A stretch of DNA of 26,119 nucleotides from Myxococcota bacterium (GCA_040752415.1 JBFMGU010000149.1:1-26119); one strand, 5' to 3'; shown: positions 1-11,248, counted from the stretch's first letter. Notes: generated from the letters alone by a model not told the origin. Numbers and translations: made by a program.

Positions 1-1488
1 GCCGGTGCCTCCGCCGCCGCCCAGCAGCAGGCGGAAGGTGGCGGGGGATGCGCTGGCGCCGCCCTGCGCGGTGACGTCGGGCTGGCAGTTGTTCTTCCCG
101 CCGTTGCCGCCGGCGGTCTGGTTCCCACCGCCGCCCCCGCCACCCACGTCCAGCGCGCCGCCGCCGCCGCCCACGGTGCTGCGCGTGGCGCTGGATTGGT
201 TGTGGCTCTCCGAGCCCAGGCCCTCCCCGTTCATGGTGGGCGTGCCGCAGAAGGACATGGCGAGCGCGTTGTCGCCGGCGCCGCGGTAGCCCGCGCCATT
301 GGCGCTGACCGCGCGGCCGTTGTGGATGAGTCGACGGGTGAAGAAGGCCACCACCCCGCCGTAGGGTGGCGTGTACGGGGCCGCCTCCAGGTCCGTGTCC
401 AGCGTGAGCTCGCTGTACTCCGGCACGTTGCAGAGCTGCGCCGGGTTGGTTCCGTCCAGGTATTGCAGGAACGTCGGGGACGGCGCGGGCTCCACCGTCG
501 CTTCCCAGGTGCCGAACGTGTTCTCGTACGACGTCAGCCGTCCCATGTGCCACAAGCCCACCGGGCCCAGCTGTGCGTCGGTGAGGTTGGCCGCGCCGCT
601 GGTGTCCGCGTTGTCCGACTGCATGATGACGAGGAGCATGCGGTCGCCCACGCTGAAGTAGGGCATCTGCGTCCGCAGCGTGGTGCCGTCCCACGTCACC
701 CCCGCGCAGAAGTTGATGGGGTAGGGCGAGGACTGCTGGTTCCAGGTGCGGGTCCCGTCGCTGGCGTTGCCGTAGCAGCTCGGATCGTCGAAGCACGGGT
801 GGGCGGGCGTCATGCACTCCAGCGGCATGCAGTCGTTCCCTCCGGGCAGGCCGCTGCTGGAGGATGACGCAGAACTGGAGGACGAGGAGCTGGAGGACGA
901 CGACGAGCTGGAGCTGGACGACGAGCTCGCTGATGACGAGGACGAGCTGGAGCTGGCTGCCGACGACGAGCTCGCGCTCGAGGAAGTGCTGGAGCTGGTG
1001 CCACCGTTGCCGCCGGACGACGAGGACGACGCGCCCGCGGTAGAAGTGGACGTGCCGGCAGCGCCGCTGCTCGCGCTGGCGGACGACGAGAAGCCTCCGT
1101 TCGAGGACGAGGTGCCGGAGTTGCTGGTCGACGAGGTGAGCCCGCCGGAGCCGCTGGCCACGCTGGAGGAGCCGCTCCCGCCCGACGAGCTGGACGCGCT
1201 CACGCCCGACGACGCGCTGCTGGAGCCACTGGCGCTGGCGCGGGACGTGGACTCCCCGCCGCTGGCCAGGCCGCCGGACGAGGACGAGCGCACGTTGGCA
1301 GGGTCGCCGCTGCTGGCGCCCAGCACGCCTCCGTCGGGGGAGAGGTAGACGCAGCGCCCGTCCACGCAGTCCATGGGGCTGCCCGGGTCGCAGTCCTGGC
1401 GGTCATTGCACAGCGCGGAAGGATCCCACTGGGTGCACGCGCCCACGACGACAACCAGGCAGAGGAGGCGGGGAAGCCGGAAGGACAT
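1..1488 (-). CDS. Secreted Ser/Gly-rich lipoprotein with AgmC-like glycine-rich domain; partial, runs off the left edge
   Basis: Not in the ORF track (no stop in window). Manual translation from ATG at 1488: MSFRLPRLLCLVVVVGAC (lipobox-like), short Cys-rich module, long poly-Ser linker, then VPEYSELTL...PYTPPYGGVVAFF...VSANGAGYRG and GGGGG runs, resembling myxobacterial AgmC-type surface proteins. Confidence 0.8.
   Translation of the reverse strand, partial: MSFRLPRLLCLVVVVGACTQWDPSALCNDRQDCDPGSPMDCVDGRCVYLSPDGGVLGASSGDPANVRSSSSGGLASGGESTSRASASGSSSASSGVSASSSSGGSGSSSVASGSGGLTSSTSNSGTSSSNGGFSSSASASSGAAGTSTSTAGASSSSSGGNGGTSSSTSSSASSSSAASSSSSSSSASSSSSSSSSSSSSSSSSSSASSSSSGLPGGNDCMPLECMTPAHPCFDDPSCYGNASDGTRTWNQQSSPYPINFCAGVTWDGTTLRTQMPYFSVGDRMLLVIMQSDNADTSGAANLTDAQLGPVGLWHMGRLTSYENTFGTWEATVEPAPSPTFLQYLDGTNPAQLCNVPEYSELTLDTDLEAAPYTPPYGGVVAFFTRRLIHNGRAVSANGAGYRGAGDNALAMSFCGTPTMNGEGLGSESHNQSSATRSTVGGGGGALDVGGGGGGGNQTAGGNGGKNNCQPDVTAQGGASASPATFRLLLGGGGGTG
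856..1320 (-). repeat. Low-complexity poly-Ser/Gly coding tract
   Basis: Repeated gctgga/cgacga/gga units on + read as TCC/TCG/AGC Ser codons on the minus strand. Confidence 0.85.
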
Positions 1489-1683
1489 GGCAGCGCTCGG
1501 ACGCCCACCATGCTGCCACCTCCGCCCTCGAGGCGCGAGCCGACGTGGCGATGGCTGACGCAGAAGGCCCAGGGTGGCGGGTGTGGGTTTCTGTCGTCGT
1601 GGAAAAGCGCAGCCACGACGGCAGCAGAAGCATTCTTCCCGCTTGTGCCCACACGCGCGGGTCTGGCATGCCGGGCGGTCGCC

Positions 1684-2532
1684 ATGACCCGACACCGCCT
1701 GCACCGCTGTCTTGTCTCCTCGTTGCGTCGTCTCGCGCTGGTGGCCTGTGCGCTGGCGCCGCTGAGCTGCCAGCACGCCGGGACCTTTGTCCGACCGGCG
1801 CTGACGGAGTGCGGTGACGGCGCGTTGGAGCGCCCGCTGCGGGTGGTCAGCTACAACATCCGCGCGGGTCTCTCGTCGTCCCTCTACGAGGTGGCCAACG
1901 TCATCCAGGAGATGGATCCCGACGTCCTGGCGCTGCAGGAGGTGGACCGCGACGTCATGCGCAGCGGGAGCGTGGACCAGGCGCAGTACCTGGCCGACAC
2001 GCTGGGCTACCACTACGCCTTTGCCGCGGCCATCCGTCGTGACGGCGGGGAGTACGGCGTGGCGTTGTTCTCCCGGCTGCCCTTCCAGCGGGCGGAGCGC
2101 GTGCAGCTCTCCGCGCCGGTGTCCAATGAGCCGCGCGTGGCCATCGACGCCACGGTGTGCGCCGGCAACAAGCCGCTGCGGGTGCTGGCGGTGCACGCGG
2201 ACGTGTGGCCCTGGAGCGGCACGCAGCATGCGCGGGAGCTGAGCGAATACGTGGAGCCTTCCGTGGGGCAGGGCGTGATTGTGGCGGGCGACCTCAATGC
2301 CACGCCGGACTGGCCGGGCCCCGCGGCGCTGCGCCACGCCGGGCTCAATGACCTCATTGCCGAGTTTGGCGGCGGCAGCACCTTCGTGGGGGACCCGCTC
2401 AAGCGCCGGCTGGACTACATCTTCGTCGACGGACCGCTGCGGGCCCGCGCGCGCGCCGCCGGCGTCATCAACCGCCGCGCCAGCGACCACCTGCCCATCT
2501 TCGCCGAGATCGACCTCACGCAGGGCTGGTGA
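1684..2532 (+). CDS. Endonuclease/exonuclease/phosphatase (EEP) family protein, probable lipoprotein
   Basis: Motifs SYNI, DVLALQEV, YGVALFSR, GDLN, LDYIFV, SDH. Signal ending LAPLSC. ATG at 1684 preferred over 1510. Confidence 0.9.
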   Translation: MTRHRLHRCLVSSLRRLALVACALAPLSCQHAGTFVRPALTECGDGALERPLRVVSYNIRAGLSSSLYEVANVIQEMDPDVLALQEVDRDVMRSGSVDQAQYLADTLGYHYAFAAAIRRDGGEYGVALFSRLPFQRAERVQLSAPVSNEPRVAIDATVCAGNKPLRVLAVHADVWPWSGTQHARELSEYVEPSVGQGVIVAGDLNATPDWPGPAALRHAGLNDLIAEFGGGSTFVGDPLKRRLDYIFVDGPLRARARAAGVINRRASDHLPIFAEIDLTQGW

Positions 2533-2535
2533 GCA

Positions 2536-4203
2536 TCAGCGCGGCAGGCGCCGGCACAGCTCGTTCATCATCACGCGGTAGCCCACCTCCGAGGGGTGGA
2601 CCATGTCATTGAAGAGCACGGGGCTCTCACCGGGCATGAGCTCGCGCCCGTCGACGAAGATGCCGCCGCGCTTCTCCACCGCCGCCCTGCGTTCCGCCAG
2701 CCACGCGTCGCGCCCGAAGCGCCGGGCGTGCCCCAGGTCAAACGAGGCCACGTCGTAGACGTGCACCAGCGGCGGGCCTTCCGCGGCCACGCGCTCCACG
2801 CAGGAGAGCAGCTCGGCGCGTCGTGGGGCCTCCAGGTTGGCGACGGAGCACGCGGCCCAGGTGTCATGCGGCCGGGGGAGGGCGCGAGAGGGCACAAACG
2901 CCAGCAGGGTCCCCAGCCAGATGGAGAGCCGCGTGGCGGGCGCGGTGAGGTCGTCATTGAATCCGCCCACGAAGATGCGCTGTCGCGTCGTGGGCAGCCC
3001 GCGCGCCACCTGGGACCACGTGTCCGCGATGAAGCAGTGGTTCGCGCCGTCGACCGCGTGGCGCGCGTAGGTGATGCCCGGCCCGCCGCAGACCTCCTGC
3101 AGCACGCCGTCCAGCGCGCCCTTGCCGTAGCCCCCCTCGTCGAGGGCCGCGCCGTTGACGGTGGAGTAGCCCAGCACCAGGTGCGTGGTTCCCGACGCTG
3201 GCGCGGTGGAGGAGCCCGGCATGTTGCCCGACGCGTTCCAGTGGTTGAACCGCGTGTTGAGCTCCGCGAATCCCTGCGGCCCCACCCACAACAACGCGCC
3301 GCCACCCACCACGCCGGTGAGCGCACCCGCGCGCCACCGCGGGCTCACGCGCGCCTTCATCACCACCGTGGCCGCCAGCAGCGCGCAGCCCGCCGCCCCC
3401 TTCACCGCCCACAACGCAATCCACAACGGCGTGAGCCACGACGCGGCAAACACCACCACCACCGCGGTGGCATCCGTGCCCACCCACGCGGGCGTGCGCA
3501 ACGCCAGCCGGTGCACCACCGAGGCCAGCGCCACCAGCACCAGCAGCCACCACCGCCACCGCGTCTCCGCCAACGGCGCGCCCGCCACCCGCTGGATGAG
3601 CATGGAGGAGTCCGCGGAAGATAGCGCCAGCTCCGCGGTGACGACGGGAAGATCCCACCGGCACCGGCCCGCTTCCACCTGGAGCTGCGCGCCCTGTCGC
3701 ACGTGGAAGACCACCGGCTCCTGCGCGGAGAAACAGGTCAGGAGGGTCTGGAGCCGGGCCATGGGCGGCGGCGTGTCCAGCATGGGCTCCCGCGTGGCGG
3801 TACCGCTCTCGTCGACGAGCAGGGTCTCGAACGGCGCGGACGTGCCCGCGGAGCGCACCTGCAGGAGCAGCGGGGAGCGCGCCTCGTAGAGCTCCACGCG
3901 CATCTCGGTGGCGCCGCCCTCCGCGGTGCGGGCCATCACCGGGTAGCCGGGCGGAACGGTCAGCGCGTTCTCGTCGGAAAACGCGGGCTGGGGCAGCATG
4001 GTGTAGGACCACGCCGTGGCACGGGCGGTGATGTGTGAGGTGGGCTGGCCGTGCTCGTCGCGCGCGTAGATGAACACCGCCTTGGAGATGGCGTTGCCCG
4101 CCGGTTGCCAGGCGCGCAACAGGCTGTGCCAACTGGCCACGTCCAGCACCGTCAGGGCCGCGAACGCCAGCCAAAGCGCCCGGTCCCGACGAGAGGCATC
4201 CAT
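2536..4203 (-). CDS. Multi-pass membrane protein with C-terminal SGNH/GDSL-like domain
   Basis: N-terminal anchor, central TM helices, then LGYST (block I Ser, codon 3163-3165), VDGAN, GGFND (block III) and DMVH (block V DxxH, 2596-2607). Confidence 0.75.
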   Translation of the reverse strand: MDASRRDRALWLAFAALTVLDVASWHSLLRAWQPAGNAISKAVFIYARDEHGQPTSHITARATAWSYTMLPQPAFSDENALTVPPGYPVMARTAEGGATEMRVELYEARSPLLLQVRSAGTSAPFETLLVDESGTATREPMLDTPPPMARLQTLLTCFSAQEPVVFHVRQGAQLQVEAGRCRWDLPVVTAELALSSADSSMLIQRVAGAPLAETRWRWWLLVLVALASVVHRLALRTPAWVGTDATAVVVVFAASWLTPLWIALWAVKGAAGCALLAATVVMKARVSPRWRAGALTGVVGGGALLWVGPQGFAELNTRFNHWNASGNMPGSSTAPASGTTHLVLGYSTVNGAALDEGGYGKGALDGVLQEVCGGPGITYARHAVDGANHCFIADTWSQVARGLPTTRQRIFVGGFNDDLTAPATRLSIWLGTLLAFVPSRALPRPHDTWAACSVANLEAPRRAELLSCVERVAAEGPPLVHVYDVASFDLGHARRFGRDAWLAERRAAVEKRGGIFVDGRELMPGESPVLFNDMVHPSEVGYRVMMNELCRRLPR

Positions 4204-4352
4204 CAGAAGAGCGTGTAGATGAACGGCGCGGCCGCGGAGCCCTGCGTCAGCACCACCAGCAGCCCCAGCAGCACCAGCGCGGTGATGATGGGCGCCAGCC
4301 AGAACTTCTTCCGCTCACGCATGAATCCCCAGAGGTCCTTGAGAAAGTCCAT
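4203..4352 (-). CDS. SxtK-like / DUF5989-type small membrane protein, 49 aa
   Basis: Below the ORF-track cutoff. Translates MDFLKDLWGFMRERKKFWLAPIITALVLLGLLVVLTQGSAAAPFIYTLF*. TGATG overlaps with both neighbours. Confidence 0.92.
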   Translation of the reverse strand: MDFLKDLWGFMRERKKFWLAPIITALVLLGLLVVLTQGSAAAPFIYTLF

Positions 4353-4768
4353 CAGAACGGTCCCTCCATGCTGCGCGCGTCCCGCGGACGGCTTGGCACC
4401 CGGTATGTGCTAGCAGACTTGTCCAGCTTGCGCGCCATGGGGTCCTTCCCCAGCACGCGCATGATGAGCCCCGTGGGCATCACCACCAGGAAGAAGAACA
4501 CCCCCAGGATGATGCGGGAGTTGATGGCCCCCAGCACCAGGCCCACCTTCATCCACGCCTGGTAGATGAGGCGCATCAGCGGCAGCGCCACCAGCGCGGG
4601 CACCCAGAAGACCGCCGCCACCATCCAGGGCCAGCGCGGCAGGTCCACGCCCCGCAGCAGCGGGATGGCCAGCCCGAACAGGGCCACGAAGATGGCGCCG
4701 GTGGTGAGGCCGAACTTGCGCAGCCCCTTGTTGTCCAGCTCGGGAATGACGTGGGCGGAGGCAGTCAT
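4352..4768 (-). CDS. SxtJ-family membrane protein, 138 aa
   Basis: MTASAH...LRKFGLTTG...WMKVGLVLGAINSRIILGVFFFLVVMPTGLIMRVLGKDPM...MEGPF. ATG at 4768 overlaps the carbamoyltransferase stop; the ORF-track start 4909 is too far upstream. Confidence 0.9.
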   Translation of the reverse strand: MTASAHVIPELDNKGLRKFGLTTGAIFVALFGLAIPLLRGVDLPRWPWMVAAVFWVPALVALPLMRLIYQAWMKVGLVLGAINSRIILGVFFFLVVMPTGLIMRVLGKDPMARKLDKSASTYRVPSRPRDARSMEGPF

Positions 4769-6606
4769 CAGTCCAGCTCGAATTCCTTCTTCCAGCTCTC
4801 GTCCTTCACCTGCGCCGGCTGGTCCTTCTTGGCCAGCAGGAAGTCCTCCAGCACCAGGTGGTCCATCTCCGTGCGCATGAAGCAGCGGTACGCGTCCTGC
4901 GGCGTGCACACAATGGGCTCCCCGCGCACGTTGAATGACGTGTTCACCAGCACCCCGCAGCCCGTCTTCTGCTCGAAGAGCCGGATCAGCTCGTGGTAGC
5001 GCGGGTTGGTCTCCTTGTGCACCGTCTGGATGCGCGCGCTGTAGTCCACGTGCGTGATGGCCGGAATGGAGCTGCGCGGCACGTTGAGCTTCTCAATGCC
5101 AAACAGCTTCTGCTGCTCGTCCGTCATGGGGATGCGCAGCTTCTCCTGCACCGGCGCCACCAGCAGCATGTAGGGGCTGCGACCCTCCATCTCGAAGTAC
5201 TCGCCCACCTGCTCCGCCAGCACGCTGGGCGCGAAGGGCCGGAAGCTCTCGCGGTACTTGATCTTCAGGTTCATCACGCTCTGCATCTTGGGACTGCGCG
5301 GATCCCCGATGATGGAGCGGCCTCCCAGCGCGCGCGGACCGAACTCCATGCGCCCGCTCAGCCAGCCCACCACGTTCTCGCCGGCCAGGATGTCCGCCAC
5401 CCTGGGCAACAGCTGCTCGTCGGGGAGACGCTCGTATTTCGCGCCCACGGAGTCCAGGAAGGCCTGGATCTCGTCGCTGCGCGCGCGCGGGCCCAGGTAG
5501 GCGCCCTGCATGCTGTCGTGCGGCTCCGGGGTGCGCGGGTTGTCCAGGTACTGGTGCCACACCGAGAGCGCGCAGCCCAACGCGCCGCCAGCATCCCCCG
5601 CCGCGGGCTGGATCCACACGTCCTTGAAGCCGCACTCCCGCAGGATGCGCCCGTTGGCCACGCAGTTGAGCGCCACGCCGCCCGCCAGGCACAGGTTCTC
5701 GACGTCGAGCTCCTTCTTCACCGTGCGCGCCAGCCGCAGCACGATCTCTTCCGTCACCACCTGGATGCTGCGGGCCAGGTCCATCTCCCGCTGCGTCATC
5801 CACGCTTCCGGCTGGCGCGGCGGTCCACCAAACAGGTCATGGAACTTCGCGTTGGTCATGGTCAGACCCACGGCGTAGTTGAAGTAGTCCATGTTGAGGT
5901 GGAAGGTGCCGTCGTCCTTGAGGTCAATGATGTGCTTGAAGATGAGGTCGACGTACTTGGGCTCACCGTAGGGAGCCAGGCCCATCACCTTGTACTCGCC
6001 GGAGTTGACCTTGAAGCCGGTGTAGTAGGTGAACGCGGAGTAGAGCAGGCCCAGGCTGTGCGGGAAATCAATCTCCCACTGCGGCGTCAGTTTGTTGCCC
6101 TCACCCAGCCACACGCTGGAGGTGGCCCACTCCCCCACGCCGTCCAGGCACATGACGCCGGCGCGTTGGAACGGGCTGGGAAAGAACGCGCTGGCGGCGT
6201 GCGACTGGTGATGTTCCGCCCACAACACCCTGGGGAGCGCGTCCACCTTCATGCCGCCCAGCGCCGCCAACTCCCGACGGAGCATGGTCTTCAGGTACAG
6301 CTTCTCTTTGAGCCACACCGGCATGGCCTTGAGGAAGCTGGCAATCCCCTTGGGCGCGTACGCCAGGTACGTCTCCAGCAGGCGCTCGAACTTCACGAAG
6401 GGCTTGTCGTAGAAGACGATCCGGTCGACGTCCTTGAGCTGGAGCCCGGCCTCCTGCAGGCAGTAGCGGATGGCGTGTTGCGGGAAGCGCGCGTCATGCT
6501 TCTTGCGGCTGAAGCGCTCCTCCTGCGCCGCGGCGGTGATCCGCCCGTCCACGACGAGAGCTGCGGCGCTGTCATGGTAGTACGCGGAGAGGCCCAGGAT
6601 CTTCAT
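4768..6606 (-). CDS. O-carbamoyltransferase, NodU/CmcH/TobZ family (SxtI-like), 612 aa
   Basis: YHDSAAAL, EERFSRKKH, EHHQSHAAS, DGVGE, GEYKVMGLAPYG, AGGVALNC, GRMEFGPRALG, RESFRPFAP, NTSFNVRGEPIV. GGAGGAG RBS upstream. Confidence 0.97.
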   Translation of the reverse strand: MKILGLSAYYHDSAAALVVDGRITAAAQEERFSRKKHDARFPQHAIRYCLQEAGLQLKDVDRIVFYDKPFVKFERLLETYLAYAPKGIASFLKAMPVWLKEKLYLKTMLRRELAALGGMKVDALPRVLWAEHHQSHAASAFFPSPFQRAGVMCLDGVGEWATSSVWLGEGNKLTPQWEIDFPHSLGLLYSAFTYYTGFKVNSGEYKVMGLAPYGEPKYVDLIFKHIIDLKDDGTFHLNMDYFNYAVGLTMTNAKFHDLFGGPPRQPEAWMTQREMDLARSIQVVTEEIVLRLARTVKKELDVENLCLAGGVALNCVANGRILRECGFKDVWIQPAAGDAGGALGCALSVWHQYLDNPRTPEPHDSMQGAYLGPRARSDEIQAFLDSVGAKYERLPDEQLLPRVADILAGENVVGWLSGRMEFGPRALGGRSIIGDPRSPKMQSVMNLKIKYRESFRPFAPSVLAEQVGEYFEMEGRSPYMLLVAPVQEKLRIPMTDEQQKLFGIEKLNVPRSSIPAITHVDYSARIQTVHKETNPRYHELIRLFEQKTGCGVLVNTSFNVRGEPIVCTPQDAYRCFMRTEMDHLVLEDFLLAKKDQPAQVKDESWKKEFELD

Positions 6607-6822
6607 GGCGCATCTCCTCCGACGTGGCGGATGGGTTGGCAGCAGGTGGATGTCACGGCGCGCGCACCATAGGCCGGCTTCCTCTCGGCGTCATGGAACC
6701 GACTAGCACAGCACCCCCGGTCCTGGGGGGCGGACGTTGGTGTCCGTCGGTCACGTCCGCGTTCACGGGTCCAACACACCTTGGACTTGTGCCTGGCGGG
6801 GGCGCTTGCTCAACTTCTCGCC

Positions 6823-9315
6823 GTGCGTGGGCTGGGGCTCCTCCTGCTGGTGCTGGCCGTCTCGTGCGTGGGGACCCCGCGCGACGAGGACGCGCTGACG
6901 CCGGTGCACGCGCGGCTGGAGTCGGAGCAGGACGTGCTGGACCTGGGCGCCGTCGACGTGGGCTGGGCCCGGGAGGGGACCGCCAGCTTCCGCAACCCCG
7001 GCAACGCCGCCACCAACCTCAGCGCGCACGTGGAGCCGGAAGGCAGTCCCTTCACCGTGCTCACGCCCTCCGCCGCCGCCGCGCCCGACCGGCACGCGCG
7101 GGTCACGGTGCGTTTCCTGGCCTTCACGGAGGGCAGTGCTTCCGCGGTCCTGGTGGTGCGCCACGACGGGGAGGCCGACGCCAACGGGTCCCGCACGCTG
7201 CGCGTGGAGCTGCGCGCGCTGGCCCTCCCGCCGCCCAATTGCGACGACGGCAACGTGTGCACGCTGGATCAGCAGGACCCCGCAGTCCCCGGCGCGTGCC
7301 GGCACCTGCCCGTGGCGGGAACGTGTGACGACGGCAACGTGTGCACGCTGGCGGACCATTGCGAGGGCGGCGAGTGCCTGGGCACCCCACGCGTGTGTGA
7401 CGACGGGATTGCCTGCACCGCGGACACCTGTGACGCCGTGGCCGGCTGCCTGAGCACCCCGGTGGCCACGCTGTGCGCCGACGAGGATCCCTGCACTTCT
7501 GACGTGTGCGCGCCCGGCGCGGGTGCCGACGCGGCAGGATGCATTCACGAGCCGTCGCCGACGGGAACGCTGTGTGGCTCGCCCTCGTGCGGGGCGCTGC
7601 CGGTGTGCGTGGCCGGCGCGTGCGTGGCCACCACGGCGCCCGACGGGTTTCCGTGTGACGACGGGAATGCGTGCACCGGCGGGGAGACGTGCCAGGCGGG
7701 CGTATGCATGGCGGGCAGCGTGAGCTCGTTTGTGCTGGGAACGCCGGTGGTGCTCCGGGAGATTGCCTTGCCGGAGACGCCGCCCGTGCAGTCCATGGAC
7801 GCGGGGGTCTCCACCGTCGACGGAGGCGGCGCCTGGGAGTGTGACGACGGGGCCTGCGGGGTTCCGCCCACCACGCCCAGCCCGCAGCCGCTCTTCGGCA
7901 GCTGGCCCATTGCCGTGGACGCCATGGCCACCGTCCCCACGTACTCCGTGGAAGGCTACAACCTGCTGACGTTGTGGCGCGGCGCGGAAGGCTACGAGGG
8001 TTCCTGGTGTTACTCGCACCCGGCGAGTTGCGCGCAACGTCCCCCCCACGCCTGTGAGCCCGTCTACGCCGTCATGCCGGTCACCACGTTGAACGCCAGC
8101 ATGATCACTCCGTCGGGGGAGGCGCTCTCGCGGTCCACGTTGTCGCTGGAGGCCGTCTACCGGCGCGCCATGGCGTTCACGTCGTGGCCCGTGGGCCCGG
8201 AGTCCAGCGTCCCTCCCGGCAACATCCTGGGGGTGGCAGCCGCCGGGCACATGAGCTCCGCGCCCATTGGCGCGGCGGTGGCGGTGGATTTCAACTCACG
8301 TTGCGCACCGTGCGGGGACGCGCCCGTGGATGGCTGCGCGCCAGCGGGGGAGGCGGTGGCGGTGGTGCTGGCCAGCATGGCCGGATTCCATCTCTCCGAC
8401 GTCATCTGGCTGGGTGACGATGGCGACGGCGCGTTCCCAGACGTGCTGGTGCGTGGCCCGGATGGTCTCCCGCTCATGGCGGCGTGGGGAGATGATGCCG
8501 CCCTGGAAGTGGCCTTTGCCACGGTTGGGACCGAGCCGTGCAACCCGGTGTGCTCGTCGGAGAGCTGTGAATGCCACAACAACGTGACGCTGCACGTCCG
8601 TTCCTATGAGGTGGCGTACATGGACGGGTTGCCGACGGCCCGGTTCACCTCGTCCAACGAGATTCCGCTCGTGCGCCGCGACGACGTGGTGACCGGGGGG
8701 CTGTCGTCGCTGCGGTTGGTGGACCTGGGCGGGATGCGTGAGCTGACCTGGCTGGAGCGTTCCACGGTGACGCCGCCCTCGGTGGACTGCGCATTGCCGG
8801 TGTCGGCGTTGTGGGACCTGTGGCGGACGCCCGTCGGACAGTCGACCGCGCAGGGCCCGCAGGTCCACCATGCCGGTGTCATGGACGCGCAGCTGGCGTT
8901 TGGCACCCGGGCGTTCAACGCGGTTCTCTCCTGGGCGGAGCCCACCACGTCGTGCGAGCTTCCGCAGGTGCTCACTTCCGACCACGGCGGCGCGGTGCAG
9001 GAGCTGATGCGCCACACGCTTCCCGGTGTGGTGGTGGAGGGCCTGGAGCTGGTTGTCGCCAACGGAACGCCGCACGTCGTGGCTGTCCACGGAGACGGAC
9101 TGGTGACCGCCATGACCCTCACCGCGGAAGTCACCACCGCAACCGGCGGCTTCAACCCCAGCGACGACGCGCGCATCCACCCCCAGAGCCCCCTGCGTCC
9201 CGTGTGGGATGACTGGGCGTTCCGCGCCGTGGGCGGGATTGCGGAGGTGGGCATCTACCGCGACTCGTTCCCGCTTCCCGCCATGGTGGTGATGCCGGCG
9301 GCCTGCGGACCGTGA
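6823..9315 (+). CDS. Cys-rich lipoprotein: Ig-like domain, CDDGNxCT repeats, unrecognised C-terminal region
   Basis: GTG at 6823 gives MRGLGLLLLVLAVSC (lipobox); TTG 6781 is an alternative start. LDLGAVDVG...FRNPG is an Ig-like module, followed by about five CDDGN(V/A)CT-type repeats. Confidence 0.8.
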   Translation: MRGLGLLLLVLAVSCVGTPRDEDALTPVHARLESEQDVLDLGAVDVGWAREGTASFRNPGNAATNLSAHVEPEGSPFTVLTPSAAAAPDRHARVTVRFLAFTEGSASAVLVVRHDGEADANGSRTLRVELRALALPPPNCDDGNVCTLDQQDPAVPGACRHLPVAGTCDDGNVCTLADHCEGGECLGTPRVCDDGIACTADTCDAVAGCLSTPVATLCADEDPCTSDVCAPGAGADAAGCIHEPSPTGTLCGSPSCGALPVCVAGACVATTAPDGFPCDDGNACTGGETCQAGVCMAGSVSSFVLGTPVVLREIALPETPPVQSMDAGVSTVDGGGAWECDDGACGVPPTTPSPQPLFGSWPIAVDAMATVPTYSVEGYNLLTLWRGAEGYEGSWCYSHPASCAQRPPHACEPVYAVMPVTTLNASMITPSGEALSRSTLSLEAVYRRAMAFTSWPVGPESSVPPGNILGVAAAGHMSSAPIGAAVAVDFNSRCAPCGDAPVDGCAPAGEAVAVVLASMAGFHLSDVIWLGDDGDGAFPDVLVRGPDGLPLMAAWGDDAALEVAFATVGTEPCNPVCSSESCECHNNVTLHVRSYEVAYMDGLPTARFTSSNEIPLVRRDDVVTGGLSSLRLVDLGGMRELTWLERSTVTPPSVDCALPVSALWDLWRTPVGQSTAQGPQVHHAGVMDAQLAFGTRAFNAVLSWAEPTTSCELPQVLTSDHGGAVQELMRHTLPGVVVEGLELVVANGTPHVVAVHGDGLVTAMTLTAEVTTATGGFNPSDDARIHPQSPLRPVWDDWAFRAVGGIAEVGIYRDSFPLPAMVVMPAACGP
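7243..7351 (+). repeat. 25-bp exact direct repeat encoding DDGNVCTL
   Basis: gacgacggcaacgtgtgcacgctgg at 7243-7267 and 7327-7351. Confidence 0.85.
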
Positions 9316-9321
9316 GCTGCC

Positions 9322-9351
9322 TTGCCGCGCCTTGCCACGCGTTCCTATAAG
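9322..9351 (+). promoter_or_regulatory. Candidate sigma70-type promoter for the second carbamoyltransferase
   Basis: TTGCCG (9322-9327), 18-nt spacer, TATAAG (9346-9351), about 30 nt before ATG 9380. Confidence 0.45.
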
Positions 9352-9379
9352 CGCCATCCCGACGAGAACGAGGTCCGCC

Positions 9380-11248
9380 ATGAAGGTGCTGGGCTACAAC
9401 GGAGGCATTGACGGCTACCCCTCACGCTTTGGCGCCAGCCACAATGCCGCGGCGGCCATCATCGTCGACGGGGAGCTGGTGGCGGCGTGTGAGGAGGAGC
9501 GCTTCACGCGGGAGAAGCATTCCGGCGCCTTCCCGCGCCACGCCATTGACTTCTGCCTCGCCGAGGCCGGCGTCAAGGATCCCAGTGAGCTGGACCTGGT
9601 GGCGTATTTCTACTCGTACCCGCTGATGTTCCGCTCGGAAGTGCTGAGCACCAACGGGCGCGGCATGAATGCGTTGCACAAGGCCAGCGTGTGGACCGTG
9701 CTGCGCACCATGCAGACGTTCAACAAGCTCGCGGGCTACTCCGACGACCGCAGCCGGCGCGCCTTTGAGCGCCACATGGGCATCTCGCTGCGGGACAACC
9801 AGTACACCGTGGTGCCGCACCACATGTGTCACCTGGCCAGCACCTTCTATGACTCACCTTTTGACCGCGCGCTGTGCCTGACCATGGACGCGCAGGGTGA
9901 GAGCACGTGCAGCCTGGCGGCGGTGGCGCGCGGGACGGAGATCACCACGCTGCGGGAAGTCCTCATCCCCAACAGCCTGGGCTACCTCTACACGTTCATC
10001 ACCGCCTTCCTCGGCTTTGACTGGCACGACGAGTACAAGGTGATGGGCCTGGCCCCCTACGGCAACCGCGCCGCGTACCGCGACTTCTTCCGCAGCATCA
10101 TCCGCAAGGACGCCGACGGACAATACGAGGTGGAGCAGGGCCTCATTGCGCAGCTGGTGGCCGCCAACGCCATGCCCGCCGGCGACGTCATCTATCCCGC
10201 GCGGCTCACGGAAGGGCTCGGTCCCCGTCGACGGGGCGACGAGCCGGTGACGCAGCGACACATGGACATTGCCGCGGGGCTGCAGGATGCGCTGGAGGAC
10301 ACCGTGGTGCACACGCTCTCCGCGCTCAGGGACCAGACCGGGGAGAAGAACCTGTGCATGGCGGGCGGGGTGGCGCTGAACTCCACCATGAACGGCGTGG
10401 TGGCGCGCAGCGGCATGTTCGAGAACGTCTGGGTCCATGCGGCCGCCCACGACGGAGGAACCTGCGTGGGGGCCGCCATGTACGGCTACCACAACGTGCT
10501 GGGCCAGCCGCGCCACTTCCAGAGGAAGAAGCACCGTTACCTGGGCCCCGGCTTCACCGGCGCCATGGTGGAGGATGCGCTCAAGACGTTTGACGCCAAG
10601 ATCACGCACCAGCGTCCGGGGGACCTCGTGGAGCACGTGGCCAAGGCCATTGCCGACGGAAAGGTGGTGGGCTGGTACCAGGGCCGCATGGAGTGGGGCC
10701 CGCGCGCGCTGGGCAACCGCAGCATCCTCGCCGACGCGCGTCGCGACGACATGAAGGACATCGTGAATCACGCGGTGAAGCTGCGGGAGGGCTTCCGTCC
10801 CTTCGCTCCCGCGGTTCTCGACGAGCACGCGCGCGAGTGGTTTGACCTCACCGGCCTTCCCGACAGTCCCTACATGCTCTTCGTGGTGCCCGTGCAGCCG
10901 GACAAGCGCCAGCGCATCCCGGCCATAACCCACGTCGACGGGAGCGCGCGCGTGCAGACGGTGACGGAGGCGGAGAACCCGCGCTTCCATGCGCTCATCC
11001 GCGCGTTCCACCAGCTCACCGGCGTGCCCGTGGTGCTGAACACCAGCTTCAACGTGAAGGGTGAGCCGATCGTGAACACCCCCGCCGACGCGGTGCGCTG
11101 CTTCCTCGGCACCCAGATCGACCTGCTGGTGATCGACGACGTCGTCATCGAGAAGCGGCCGGAGGTGGCGGCGGCGCTGGAGGCGGAGCGCGGCAGGCAC
11201 GGCCAGCACACCGGGCGCGTGGTGCAGGGCCAGATCAGCGTGGCGTGA
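9380..11248 (+). CDS. Second NodU/CmcH-family carbamoyltransferase, 622 aa
   Basis: MKVLG..., EEERFTREKH, HHMCHLAS, DAQGE, EYKVMGLAPYG, AGGVALNS, GRMEWGPRALGNRS, REGFRPFAP, NTSFNVKGEPIV. Confidence 0.95.
   Translation: MKVLGYNGGIDGYPSRFGASHNAAAAIIVDGELVAACEEERFTREKHSGAFPRHAIDFCLAEAGVKDPSELDLVAYFYSYPLMFRSEVLSTNGRGMNALHKASVWTVLRTMQTFNKLAGYSDDRSRRAFERHMGISLRDNQYTVVPHHMCHLASTFYDSPFDRALCLTMDAQGESTCSLAAVARGTEITTLREVLIPNSLGYLYTFITAFLGFDWHDEYKVMGLAPYGNRAAYRDFFRSIIRKDADGQYEVEQGLIAQLVAANAMPAGDVIYPARLTEGLGPRRRGDEPVTQRHMDIAAGLQDALEDTVVHTLSALRDQTGEKNLCMAGGVALNSTMNGVVARSGMFENVWVHAAAHDGGTCVGAAMYGYHNVLGQPRHFQRKKHRYLGPGFTGAMVEDALKTFDAKITHQRPGDLVEHVAKAIADGKVVGWYQGRMEWGPRALGNRSILADARRDDMKDIVNHAVKLREGFRPFAPAVLDEHAREWFDLTGLPDSPYMLFVVPVQPDKRQRIPAITHVDGSARVQTVTEAENPRFHALIRAFHQLTGVPVVLNTSFNVKGEPIVNTPADAVRCFLGTQIDLLVIDDVVIEKRPEVAAALEAERGRHGQHTGRVVQGQISVA

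Follow-up and report, generated by a model that had tools for sequence, protein, structure and literature searches.

What can a membrane peptide of 49 amino acids contribute to a carbamoyltransferase, if the tyrosine near its end is predicted to lie on the opposite side of the membrane from that enzyme? This question is raised by a stretch of 26,119 nucleotides (nt) from a Myxococcota bacterium (GCA_040752415.1 JBFMGU010000149.1:1-26119), hereafter called the window, in which a gene for a microprotein of the Pfam family DUF5989 occupies positions 4203–4352 of the minus strand, within an operon that also encodes an O-carbamoyltransferase, a small membrane protein of the SxtJ family and a larger membrane protein. 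The peptide ends in the hexapeptide FIYTLF, which fits the pattern FXYXXF. This pattern has been described as an 'acyl shuttle' motif, the invariant tyrosine of which is acylated in DltX and at the C-termini of membrane-bound O-acyltransferases (MBOATs) (PMC12148441). In the present work, we propose that a carbamoyl group is relayed on this tyrosine. In such a carbamoyl-tyrosine relay, the tail of the peptide would be loaded by the carbamoyltransferase and SxtJ, and an SGNH transferase would move the group to an envelope glycan; we consider the chances of this proposal being right and of its being wrong to be about equal. No suggestion of a carbamoyl-shuttle role for the DUF5989 peptide was found in the literature searched, supplements lying outside the search, and no paper on DUF5989 was found there either. 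Among the matches listed from the DltX literature since 2022, none dealt with carbamoyl systems.

A microprotein gene under selection

The open reading frame at 4203–4352 (minus strand, as are all four genes of the operon) translates to MDFLKDLWGFMRERKKFWLAPIITALVLLGLLVVLTQGSAAAPFIYTLF, followed by a TGA stop, and encodes 49 amino acids from the ATG at 4352, or 50 if translation starts at the CTG at 4355. Its product comprises a basic patch, RERKK (residues 12–16; 4305–4319), which is predicted to be cytoplasmic and of which R14, K15 and K16 are invariant in alignment A1; a single hydrophobic helix, predicted from the sequence at residues ~17–36 (4245–4304); a linker, QGSAAAP (residues 37–43); and the terminal hexapeptide FIYTLF (4206–4223), with the TAC codon of Tyr46 at 4215–4217. 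A preliminary description of the locus had named each of these parts, and all of them lie where it had put them. In a 54-sequence alignment of the peptide, W18, P21 and G30 within the helix, A42 and P43 at the end of the linker, and F44, Y46 and F49 within the hexapeptide are invariant.

Membership in DUF5989, likewise proposed in that description, is borne out by a full-length match to the Pfam model (PF19451; E=5e-28, 97.3 bits against a cutoff of 27, profile positions 1–49 of 49 on residues 1–49), and the same model is matched by 54 of 54 aligned relatives. A scan of NCBIfam gave no match. The peptide had also been called unannotated, which is only partly right: the protein collection already includes the peptide of the window as a 50-residue call (P0005) starting at the CTG at 4355 and tagged PF19451. 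Relatives numbered 1931 at E≤1e-3 among clusters at 90% identity (26–86 residues) and 3102 among representatives at 50% identity, of which 562 reached E≤1e-10. Their usual length is 50 residues, as in 114 of the 120 closest relatives listed.

A scan of one genome per species found the peptide in at least 568 genomes, and the best 80 loci, which represent the closest-relative end of the family, were analysed. They belong to Gamma-, Alpha- and Betaproteobacteria (including Pelagibacteraceae), Cyanobacteria, Nitrospira, Bacteroidota, Desulfobacterota, Actinomycetota, Acidobacteriota and other groups. Together with the window, these loci provide 81 coding sequences, in which mean pairwise nucleotide identity at codon positions 1, 2 and 3 is 0.68, 0.85 and 0.37, respectively, and in which every synonymous codon is in use at the motif positions. 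The 49-amino-acid frame is therefore a real gene, selected at the protein level. A Shine–Dalgarno-like GGAGGG (4362–4367, minus strand), located within the 3' end of sxtJ, lies 9 nt 5' of the peptide ATG, and this site and the codon-position identities both agree with the translated peptide on which the preliminary description depended.

Averaged over alignment columns, identity amounts to 69% in the peptide, 57% in the carbamoyltransferase and 23% in SxtJ. A role as precursor of a product resembling ribosomally synthesised and post-translationally modified peptides was considered and ruled out, since a mean identity of 69% across phyla is just the reverse of the variability of natural-product precursors. 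The peptide also gave sub-cutoff matches to DUF5976, another family of 50 residues, in the RKK-W region (residues 9–28; 4305–4328, minus strand), with E=0.011 for the peptide of the window and E≤10 for 23 of the 54 relatives (best E 0.0094). Judged by these sequence matches, DUF5976 may be a related microprotein family.

The terminal motif

The terminal position of the hexapeptide, on which its likeness to DltX had in part been founded, holds in 80 of 80 genome loci, all of which end in F[IV]Y[TAS][LIVT]F followed directly by a stop codon, with the tyrosine invariant. The variants among these loci are FIYTLF (64), FIYTIF (9), FVYTLF (3), FIYAVF (2), FIYTTF (1) and FIYSIF (1), and the stop codons that follow are TAA (34), TGA (24) and TAG (22). 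The locus scan used two patterns, one of which was APFIYTLF, and this sample thus leans towards the motif. Among the 120 closest relatives listed, 117 end in FIYTLF and the other three in FVYTLF, FIYTVF or FVYTIF.

A HMMER search made free of any pattern gave, among the best 150 of the 3102 representatives, 117 that end in the motif. Of the other 33, 23 retain the whole motif but run on into tails unrelated to one another, and in 10 the sequence departs from the family within the motif or just after it. Going by their sequences, these 33 representatives look like read-through or frameshifted gene calls that make up clusters of their own. The 23 extended ones are probably read-through or chimeric gene calls from metagenomes, and if any of them is real, the motif is not always terminal. 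The 23 fall within P0131–P0268 and carry FIYT[LIY]F before tails of 15–63 residues.

A translationally coupled operon and its conserved partners

In the window, the gene for the DUF5989 peptide comes third in a translationally coupled operon of four minus-strand genes, each of which meets the next in an identical TGATG stop/start overlap, three overlaps in all. Gene 1 (4768–6606) encodes an O-carbamoyltransferase of 612 amino acids and of the TobZ/NovN/GdmN type, and its 1839 bp equal the published length of sxtI. The enzyme consists of a Kae1-like N domain and a YrdC-like C domain, both at full length (Carbam_trans_N, E=6.5e-120, 1–346 of 346; Carbam_trans_C, E=2.7e-74, 1–170 of 170), and its matches in the PDB include the carbamoyltransferase 7xb6 (1.3e-94), NovN (2.3e-91) and TobZ (~1e-74), with GdmN also related. 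Its stop codon, TGA at 4770–4768, shares one nucleotide with the ATG of gene 2 (4352–4768), which encodes the small membrane protein of the SxtJ family (138 amino acids from the ATG at 4768; PF19588, E=1.1e-15) and has TGATG overlaps at both of its ends. Downstream of the peptide lies gene 4 (2536–4203), for a membrane protein of 555 amino acids, the ATG of which overlaps the peptide stop in the last TGATG. The end of the operon is marked by a convergent plus-strand gene of the endonuclease/exonuclease/phosphatase family (1510–2532; Pfam Exo_endo_phos, E=5.1e-22).

The same partners accompany the peptide elsewhere. Hidden Markov models (HMMs) built from the aligned partners recovered a carbamoyltransferase in 73 of the 80 loci and SxtJ in 73 of 80, and some of the misses fall at contig ends (L005, L051). 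With I standing for the carbamoyltransferase, J for SxtJ and K for the peptide, the gene orders are IJK (27 loci), JKI (26), IKJ (9), KIJ (2) and KJI (1), plus incomplete sets; the linkage has thus survived repeated rearrangement. Other neighbours are often glycan genes, encoding Bac_transf, GT1, GT2, GT4, polysaccharide deacetylase, heparinase II/III, YjbH and HldE-like proteins.

The SGNH partner family

The product of gene 4 combines an N-terminal helix with a beta-rich domain, roughly four hydrophobic helices and, at its C-terminus, an SGNH-like domain. This divergent domain spans residues ~335–555 (2539–3201, minus strand), with G345-Y346-S347, G413-G414-F415-N416-D417 and D533-x-x-H536 as candidate blocks. 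Only two relatives of gene 4 are present in the collection, and the GYS, GGFND and DxxH blocks are invariant in the resulting three-sequence alignment. When gene 4 was compared by hhalign with the SGNH family linked to the peptide in other genomes, a probability of 80% was obtained (E=1.4e-5, 212 columns), and the blocks fell into register. The two soluble domains of gene 4 would both be periplasmic, on the same side as the tail of the peptide, as judged from the charges flanking its helices and from the helices of a low-confidence model.

By its sequence, the locus-linked family itself is clearly SGNH. Its members match Pfam GDSL_2 (29 of 33) and ALGX (9 of 33), and its profile, searched against the PDB, finds TesA-type esterases (to 1.4e-18), AlgX (4.6e-10), AlgJ (2.4e-9) and PatB1 (7.9e-6). 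Across the family alignment the serine never varies and the histidine hardly does, and all 33 members have an N-terminal hydrophobic segment as an anchor. Pfam models identified a GDSL, SGNH or AlgX-type protein in 23 of the 84 same-strand immediate neighbours from the 80 loci. The HMMs of the family itself found it in 49 of the 80 loci, in 41 of them at most 500 nt from the block, and in 33 of the 51 loci that have at least 3 kb on both sides. Two to five copies are present in 16 loci, the largest arrays (three to five) being mostly cyanobacterial. There are also four loci in which the peptide occurs with no carbamoyltransferase or SxtJ nearby, and three of these four adjoin an SGNH gene or an SGNH-type TPR gene (L049 6497–8147; L063 3389–4645; L055 2–1337), which suggests that the link between peptide and SGNH protein is independent of the carbamoyltransferase and SxtJ.

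Three further observations concern the genes next to the peptide. Tandem arrays of three to five anchored SGNH paralogues lie directly 3' of it in the cyanobacterial loci L005, L006, L019, L020, L023, L024, L030, L031, L040 and L042. In one of these, from Trichodesmium erythraeum (L006), SxtJ and the peptide are accompanied by five SGNH genes, but no carbamoyltransferase lies within 8 kb. In a gammaproteobacterial locus without an SGNH gene (L001), the gene next after the peptide (8532–9746, plus strand) encodes a DUF6687 protein (E=1.3e-73).

Topology and the membrane partners

In 54 peptides, the segment before the helix contains a mean of 4.5 lysine plus arginine and 2.6 aspartate plus glutamate residues, and the 13-residue tail after the helix contains no charged residue in any of the 54. 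By the positive-inside rule, the basic N-terminal flank and the uncharged tail point to an N-in/C-out topology, with the tail on the outer face, and these charge counts agree with the orientation that the preliminary description had predicted. The conserved, amphipathic and basic N-terminus is likewise predicted to face the cytoplasm. The topological puzzle raised in that description, namely a tyrosine predicted to be periplasmic as opposed to a cytoplasmic carbamoyltransferase, is a real one.

SxtJ is not an MBOAT. Although its mean column identity is low (23%), W73 is nearly invariant and P99 is invariant, and an AlphaFold 2 (AF2) model of the protein has a mean predicted local distance difference test (pLDDT) score of 90.9, with helices at residues 14–40, 47–61 and 63–106, the last being 44 residues long. 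The C-terminal tail has a mean of 8.4 lysine plus arginine residues as against 0.8 in the first loop, and this basic tail suggests that both termini of SxtJ are cytoplasmic and that its middle is in part re-entrant. Within the same tail (4355–4430, minus strand; the last 25 columns of alignment A3) there is a conserved aromatic-Arg pair (YR, YW or FK). The terminus of the protein follows the pattern M-E/K-x-P/Q-F/Y/W and thus has a conserved aromatic end residue, as does the peptide.

The carbamoyltransferase carries an insert specific to its subfamily at residues ~488–512, ...MTDEQQKLFGIEKLN... (5071–5145, minus strand), which is present in 54 of 54 linked enzymes (alignment A2) with the consensus R..M..E...LFGI.KLN..RS. 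This segment of roughly 20 residues is gapped in the three solved enzymes aligned (7xb6, NovN and GdmN) and in a second carbamoyltransferase of the window. The membrane partners may dock on this insert. A complex prediction of carbamoyltransferase, SxtJ and peptide, in which the peptide was scored, returned 'weak support' with a score of 0.59 (runs 0.58, 0.59 and 0.59); the runs share at least 92% of contacts, and partner pLDDT was at least 70. None of the three controls scored above 0.01, the value reached also when the carbamoyltransferase alone was exchanged. In the calibration, 116 of 157 solved complexes and 2 of 215 mismatched pairs attained the mark, scores of 0.60 or less belonging to only 18 of those 157 solved complexes and to both passing mismatches; unlike the calibration, the present run used our own alignments and three chains, and its output was a score without a list of contacts. 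We take the prediction as at most a faint indication of contact between the peptide and the carbamoyltransferase.

Comparison with known transfer systems

The closest likeness is to the D-alanylation system formed by the MBOAT DltB, DltX and the SGNH protein DltD. Like DltX, the peptide has about 49 residues, one transmembrane helix and a C-terminal FXYXXF with an invariant tyrosine, its gene lies in the operon of a group-activating enzyme, and its partner is an N-terminally anchored SGNH protein. The parallel in size drawn by the preliminary description is upheld, the C-terminal region of Lactiplantibacillus plantarum DltX being given as residues 41–49 (PMC13653941) and the peptide here having 49 residues. 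So is the parallel in the hexapeptide, in that FIYTLF, with its invariant tyrosine, fits the published FXYXXF (PMC12148441). In the account of DltX, DltD is described as having a single transmembrane segment at residues 7–30 and an extracellular domain (PMC13653941), an architecture shared by the anchored SGNH family of the loci. The SGNH-like neighbour, which would belong to the same partner class as DltD, PatB and AlgX, is the strongest support for a DltX-like architecture and had been missed in the preliminary description; the missing counterpart is the MBOAT. Unlike DltX, the donor would be a TobZ-type carbamoyltransferase with the small SxtJ instead of an MBOAT with a carrier protein, the group would be carbamoyl instead of D-alanyl, and the peptide occurs mostly in diderm bacteria. 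With the MBOAT-SGNH systems of envelope acetylation (PatA/PatB and AlgI/AlgJ/AlgX), the system shares the logic of a terminal motif, SGNH acceptor enzymes and glycan-rich neighbourhoods, but its motif is placed on a free microprotein instead of being fused to the conduit, and there is no MBOAT.

A second comparison is with the saxitoxin genes. The published sxt block consists of sxtI (1839 bp), sxtJ (405 bp), sxtK (165 bp) and sxtL, for a GDSL lipase (1281 bp) (PMC2679770), and sxtI, J, K and L have been reported to share a common Oscillatoriales origin (PMC2684587). In the reviews consulted, SxtL is given a hydrolytic role, and SxtJ and SxtK are called uncharacterised or are said merely to act with SxtI (PMC2885083; PMC12300590; bioRxiv 10.64898/2026.06.11.731795). 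The operon of the window has the gene order and gene sizes of SxtI-SxtJ-SxtK-SxtL, and its second gene matches the Pfam SxtJ model. The peptide, in the position of SxtK, adjoins a gene of the SxtJ family and an SxtI-type carbamoyltransferase of 612 amino acids, and in cyanobacterial loci a 54-amino-acid peptide is followed directly 3' by an SGNH gene for 419–421 amino acids. By position and size, DUF5989 is probably the SxtK family. Unlike the saxitoxin block, the window has a G+C content of ~70% and no other sxt-type genes, and is therefore not a toxin cluster.

As regards the enzyme, gene 1 resembles the O-carbamoyltransferases TobZ, NovN, GdmN and NodU in having both domains at full length. 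It differs from them in that, with 53 relatives, it carries the extra segment and is tied to two small membrane proteins.

The proposed relay and its rivals

Enzymes of the TobZ type activate carbamoyl phosphate as carbamoyl-AMP, and in the proposed relay the cytoplasmic carbamoyltransferase would begin with this reaction. It would then dock on SxtJ and on the N-terminus of the peptide and carbamoylate Tyr46. The tail would swing the resulting aryl carbamate to the active-site serine of the anchored periplasmic SGNH transferase, represented here by gene 4, and this enzyme would carbamoylate a hydroxyl, either on an envelope glycan or on another extracytoplasmic acceptor. For loading from the cytoplasm, the tail (AAAPFIYTLF), which is hydrophobic and bears no charge, could slip back into a cavity lined by SxtJ, which would act as the conduit, as the tail of DltX enters DltB. 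In its most general form, the proposal would have DUF5989/SxtK as the carrier in a relay that is widespread, needs no MBOAT and exports carbamoyl groups as an O-carbamoyl-tyrosine ester, in which a soluble adenylate-forming carbamoyltransferase seated on SxtJ loads the tail tyrosine through the membrane and anchored SGNH enzymes carbamoylate extracytoplasmic acceptors. We regard this general form as a tentative one, somewhat nearer to doubt than to belief.

A number of observations weigh against the relay. The tyrosine that would be loaded is predicted to be periplasmic, across the membrane from the active site of the carbamoyltransferase, and no MBOAT or other known transmembrane acyl conduit was recognised in the operon or among the 84 same-strand neighbours of the 80 loci, nor was an MBOAT domain found in the rest of the window. 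A Foldseek search with SxtJ (138 amino acids) against the PDB gave no hit at E≤0.001 (best E=1.3), and with no solved fold like it, a channel role for SxtJ cannot be argued. Because the entire peptide is conserved and not the tyrosine alone, the invariance of the tyrosine is no specific evidence. Kinship with DltX, as distinct from resemblance, found no support: the Pfam DltX model matched neither the peptide nor any of its 54 relatives at E≤10, in a search in which the filters of HMMER drop most matches above ~0.1 and the peptides are very short. Given this result and the absence of an MBOAT, the peptide is a DltX analogue and not a detectable homologue, and the likeness may be convergent or coincidental. 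A phmmer search of the peptide against the PDB found only chance matches (E ~1), and an Atlas look-alike search gave no usable match. The solved relatives of gene 1, namely NovN, GdmN and TobZ, are named as enzymes of small-molecule antibiotic pathways, carbamoyltransferases of this type are soluble, and carbamoyl-serine intermediates usually turn over slowly. The complex score of 0.59 falls in a range in which a pass is more likely to be false than true, unless the proposed contact was probable to begin with.

On the acceptor side, 31 of the 80 loci have no SGNH gene within the DNA fetched. Gene 4 itself matches Pfam GDSL_2 only at E=0.063, below the cutoff, and a local HMM at E=0.028; its block I reads GYS where GDS is expected; its sequence profile has no match in the PDB at E≤10; and its AF2 model, made from three sequences, has a mean pLDDT of 47, too poor for a fold search. 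Nor was any robust fusion of the peptide with SxtJ, or with an MBOAT-like protein, found, the only cases being singletons of doubtful quality. The 36 long representatives of at least 95 amino acids are out-of-frame N-terminal over-extensions, only P0251 having an in-frame piece of SxtJ, and a search for longer proteins gave 18, nearly all from single contigs, with one SxtJ plus DUF5989 and one carbamoyltransferase fragment plus DUF5989. The use of natural fusions as 'Rosetta stone' evidence was dropped, as these are probable artefacts.

Some of these points would be expected if SxtJ and the peptide formed a membrane tether or scaffold that holds the carbamoyltransferase at the inner face, where a membrane-bound substrate, for example a lipid-linked sugar, would be carbamoylated prior to export; the tail would then be a protein contact, for instance with SxtJ or the SGNH protein, and never a carrier. 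The solved relatives, named for small-molecule antibiotics, fit such a role, and enzymes of the NovN/GdmN/TobZ type act directly on the hydroxyls of small molecules. A conduit protein was recognised neither among the 84 neighbours nor in the SxtJ fold search, 31 of 80 loci have no nearby SGNH gene, and the amphipathic basic N-terminal segment is as conserved as the tail. In addition, the predicted placement of the peptide needs the carbamoyltransferase, as the control at 0.01 indicates, and fits an N-terminal contact in the cytoplasm. What a tether leaves unexplained is the exact and strictly terminal FXYXXF with its invariant tyrosine in 80 of 80 loci, the uncharged tail in 54 of 54 peptides, and the recurrence of anchored SGNH genes resembling AlgX, AlgJ and PatB even where carbamoyltransferase and SxtJ are lacking. 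We consider the tether unlikely on balance, though it deserves serious attention.

It is less probable still, in our estimate, that the peptide is an accessory subunit which stabilises or regulates SxtJ or the SGNH protein and whose likeness to FXYXXF is accidental. The lack of sequence kinship to DltX and of a usable Atlas look-alike would fit this, as would reviews which, in the passages concerned, give SxtJ and SxtK no function beyond acting with SxtI (PMC2885083; PMC12300590). The coincidence would, however, have to span size, topology, motif, terminal position, invariance of the tyrosine and an SGNH partner all together, and a mean column identity of 69% across phyla is unusual for a mere stabiliser. 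The preliminary description had raised, as its second option, a donor that is loaded before insertion: Tyr46 would be carbamoylated in the cytoplasm on the nascent peptide, which would insert tail first and deliver one group per molecule. Through translational coupling, the peptide would be synthesised next to the enzyme, its tail, short and uncharged, is of a kind that could cross a membrane unaided, and the complex prediction, with its weak support, suggests a direct contact that depends on the carbamoyltransferase (0.59 versus 0.01). Such a single-use donor is nevertheless very improbable, in that it would cost one 49-amino-acid peptide for every group transferred and would leave no role for SxtJ, linked in 73 of 80 loci, whereas the known tyrosine shuttles turn over catalytically (PMC12148441).

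Other features of the window

An open reading frame at 1–1497 (minus strand) resembles a lipoprotein gene, with a signal ending ...LVVVVGAC followed by a serine-rich low-complexity stretch of ~150 residues; its C-terminal domain has no Pfam match and runs past the edge of the window. A frame of 830 amino acids downstream of gene 4 (1–2490, minus strand) was rejected as a single gene, as its upstream third is antisense to a real plus-strand gene and the rest begins further in, at the lipoprotein-like signal. Divergent from the operon, a plus-strand gene at 6781–9315 encodes a protein of 844 amino acids with a HYDIN/VesB-like Ig domain and a Dictyostelium-type repeat, and it sits between the two carbamoyltransferase genes. 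The second of these (9332–11248, plus strand) is also full-length, is 39% identical to gene 1 and has no adjoining SxtJ or DUF5989 gene.

Implications for the DUF5989 and SxtJ families

The carbamoyl-tyrosine relay would give a concrete chemical role to DUF5989 and SxtJ, two orphan families that occur in no fewer than 568 species-level genomes, and would fill a long-standing gap, namely the parts played by SxtJ and SxtK beside SxtI. If the relay is true, it would explain why a subfamily of carbamoyltransferases travels with two tiny membrane proteins and an SGNH gene, and the sxtI-J-K-L block would be recast as a single four-part transferase, in which the GDSL protein is a transferase and not a hydrolase. 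The arrays of two to five SGNH paralogues would, in that case, set the range of acceptors. The principle of the tyrosine acyl shuttle, established only recently, would be widened beyond MBOATs and beyond acetyl and D-alanyl groups, as a second, independently built way to move an activated acyl-type group across a membrane on a tail of six residues. The relay also points to the surface carbamoylation of envelope glycans in abundant environmental bacteria.

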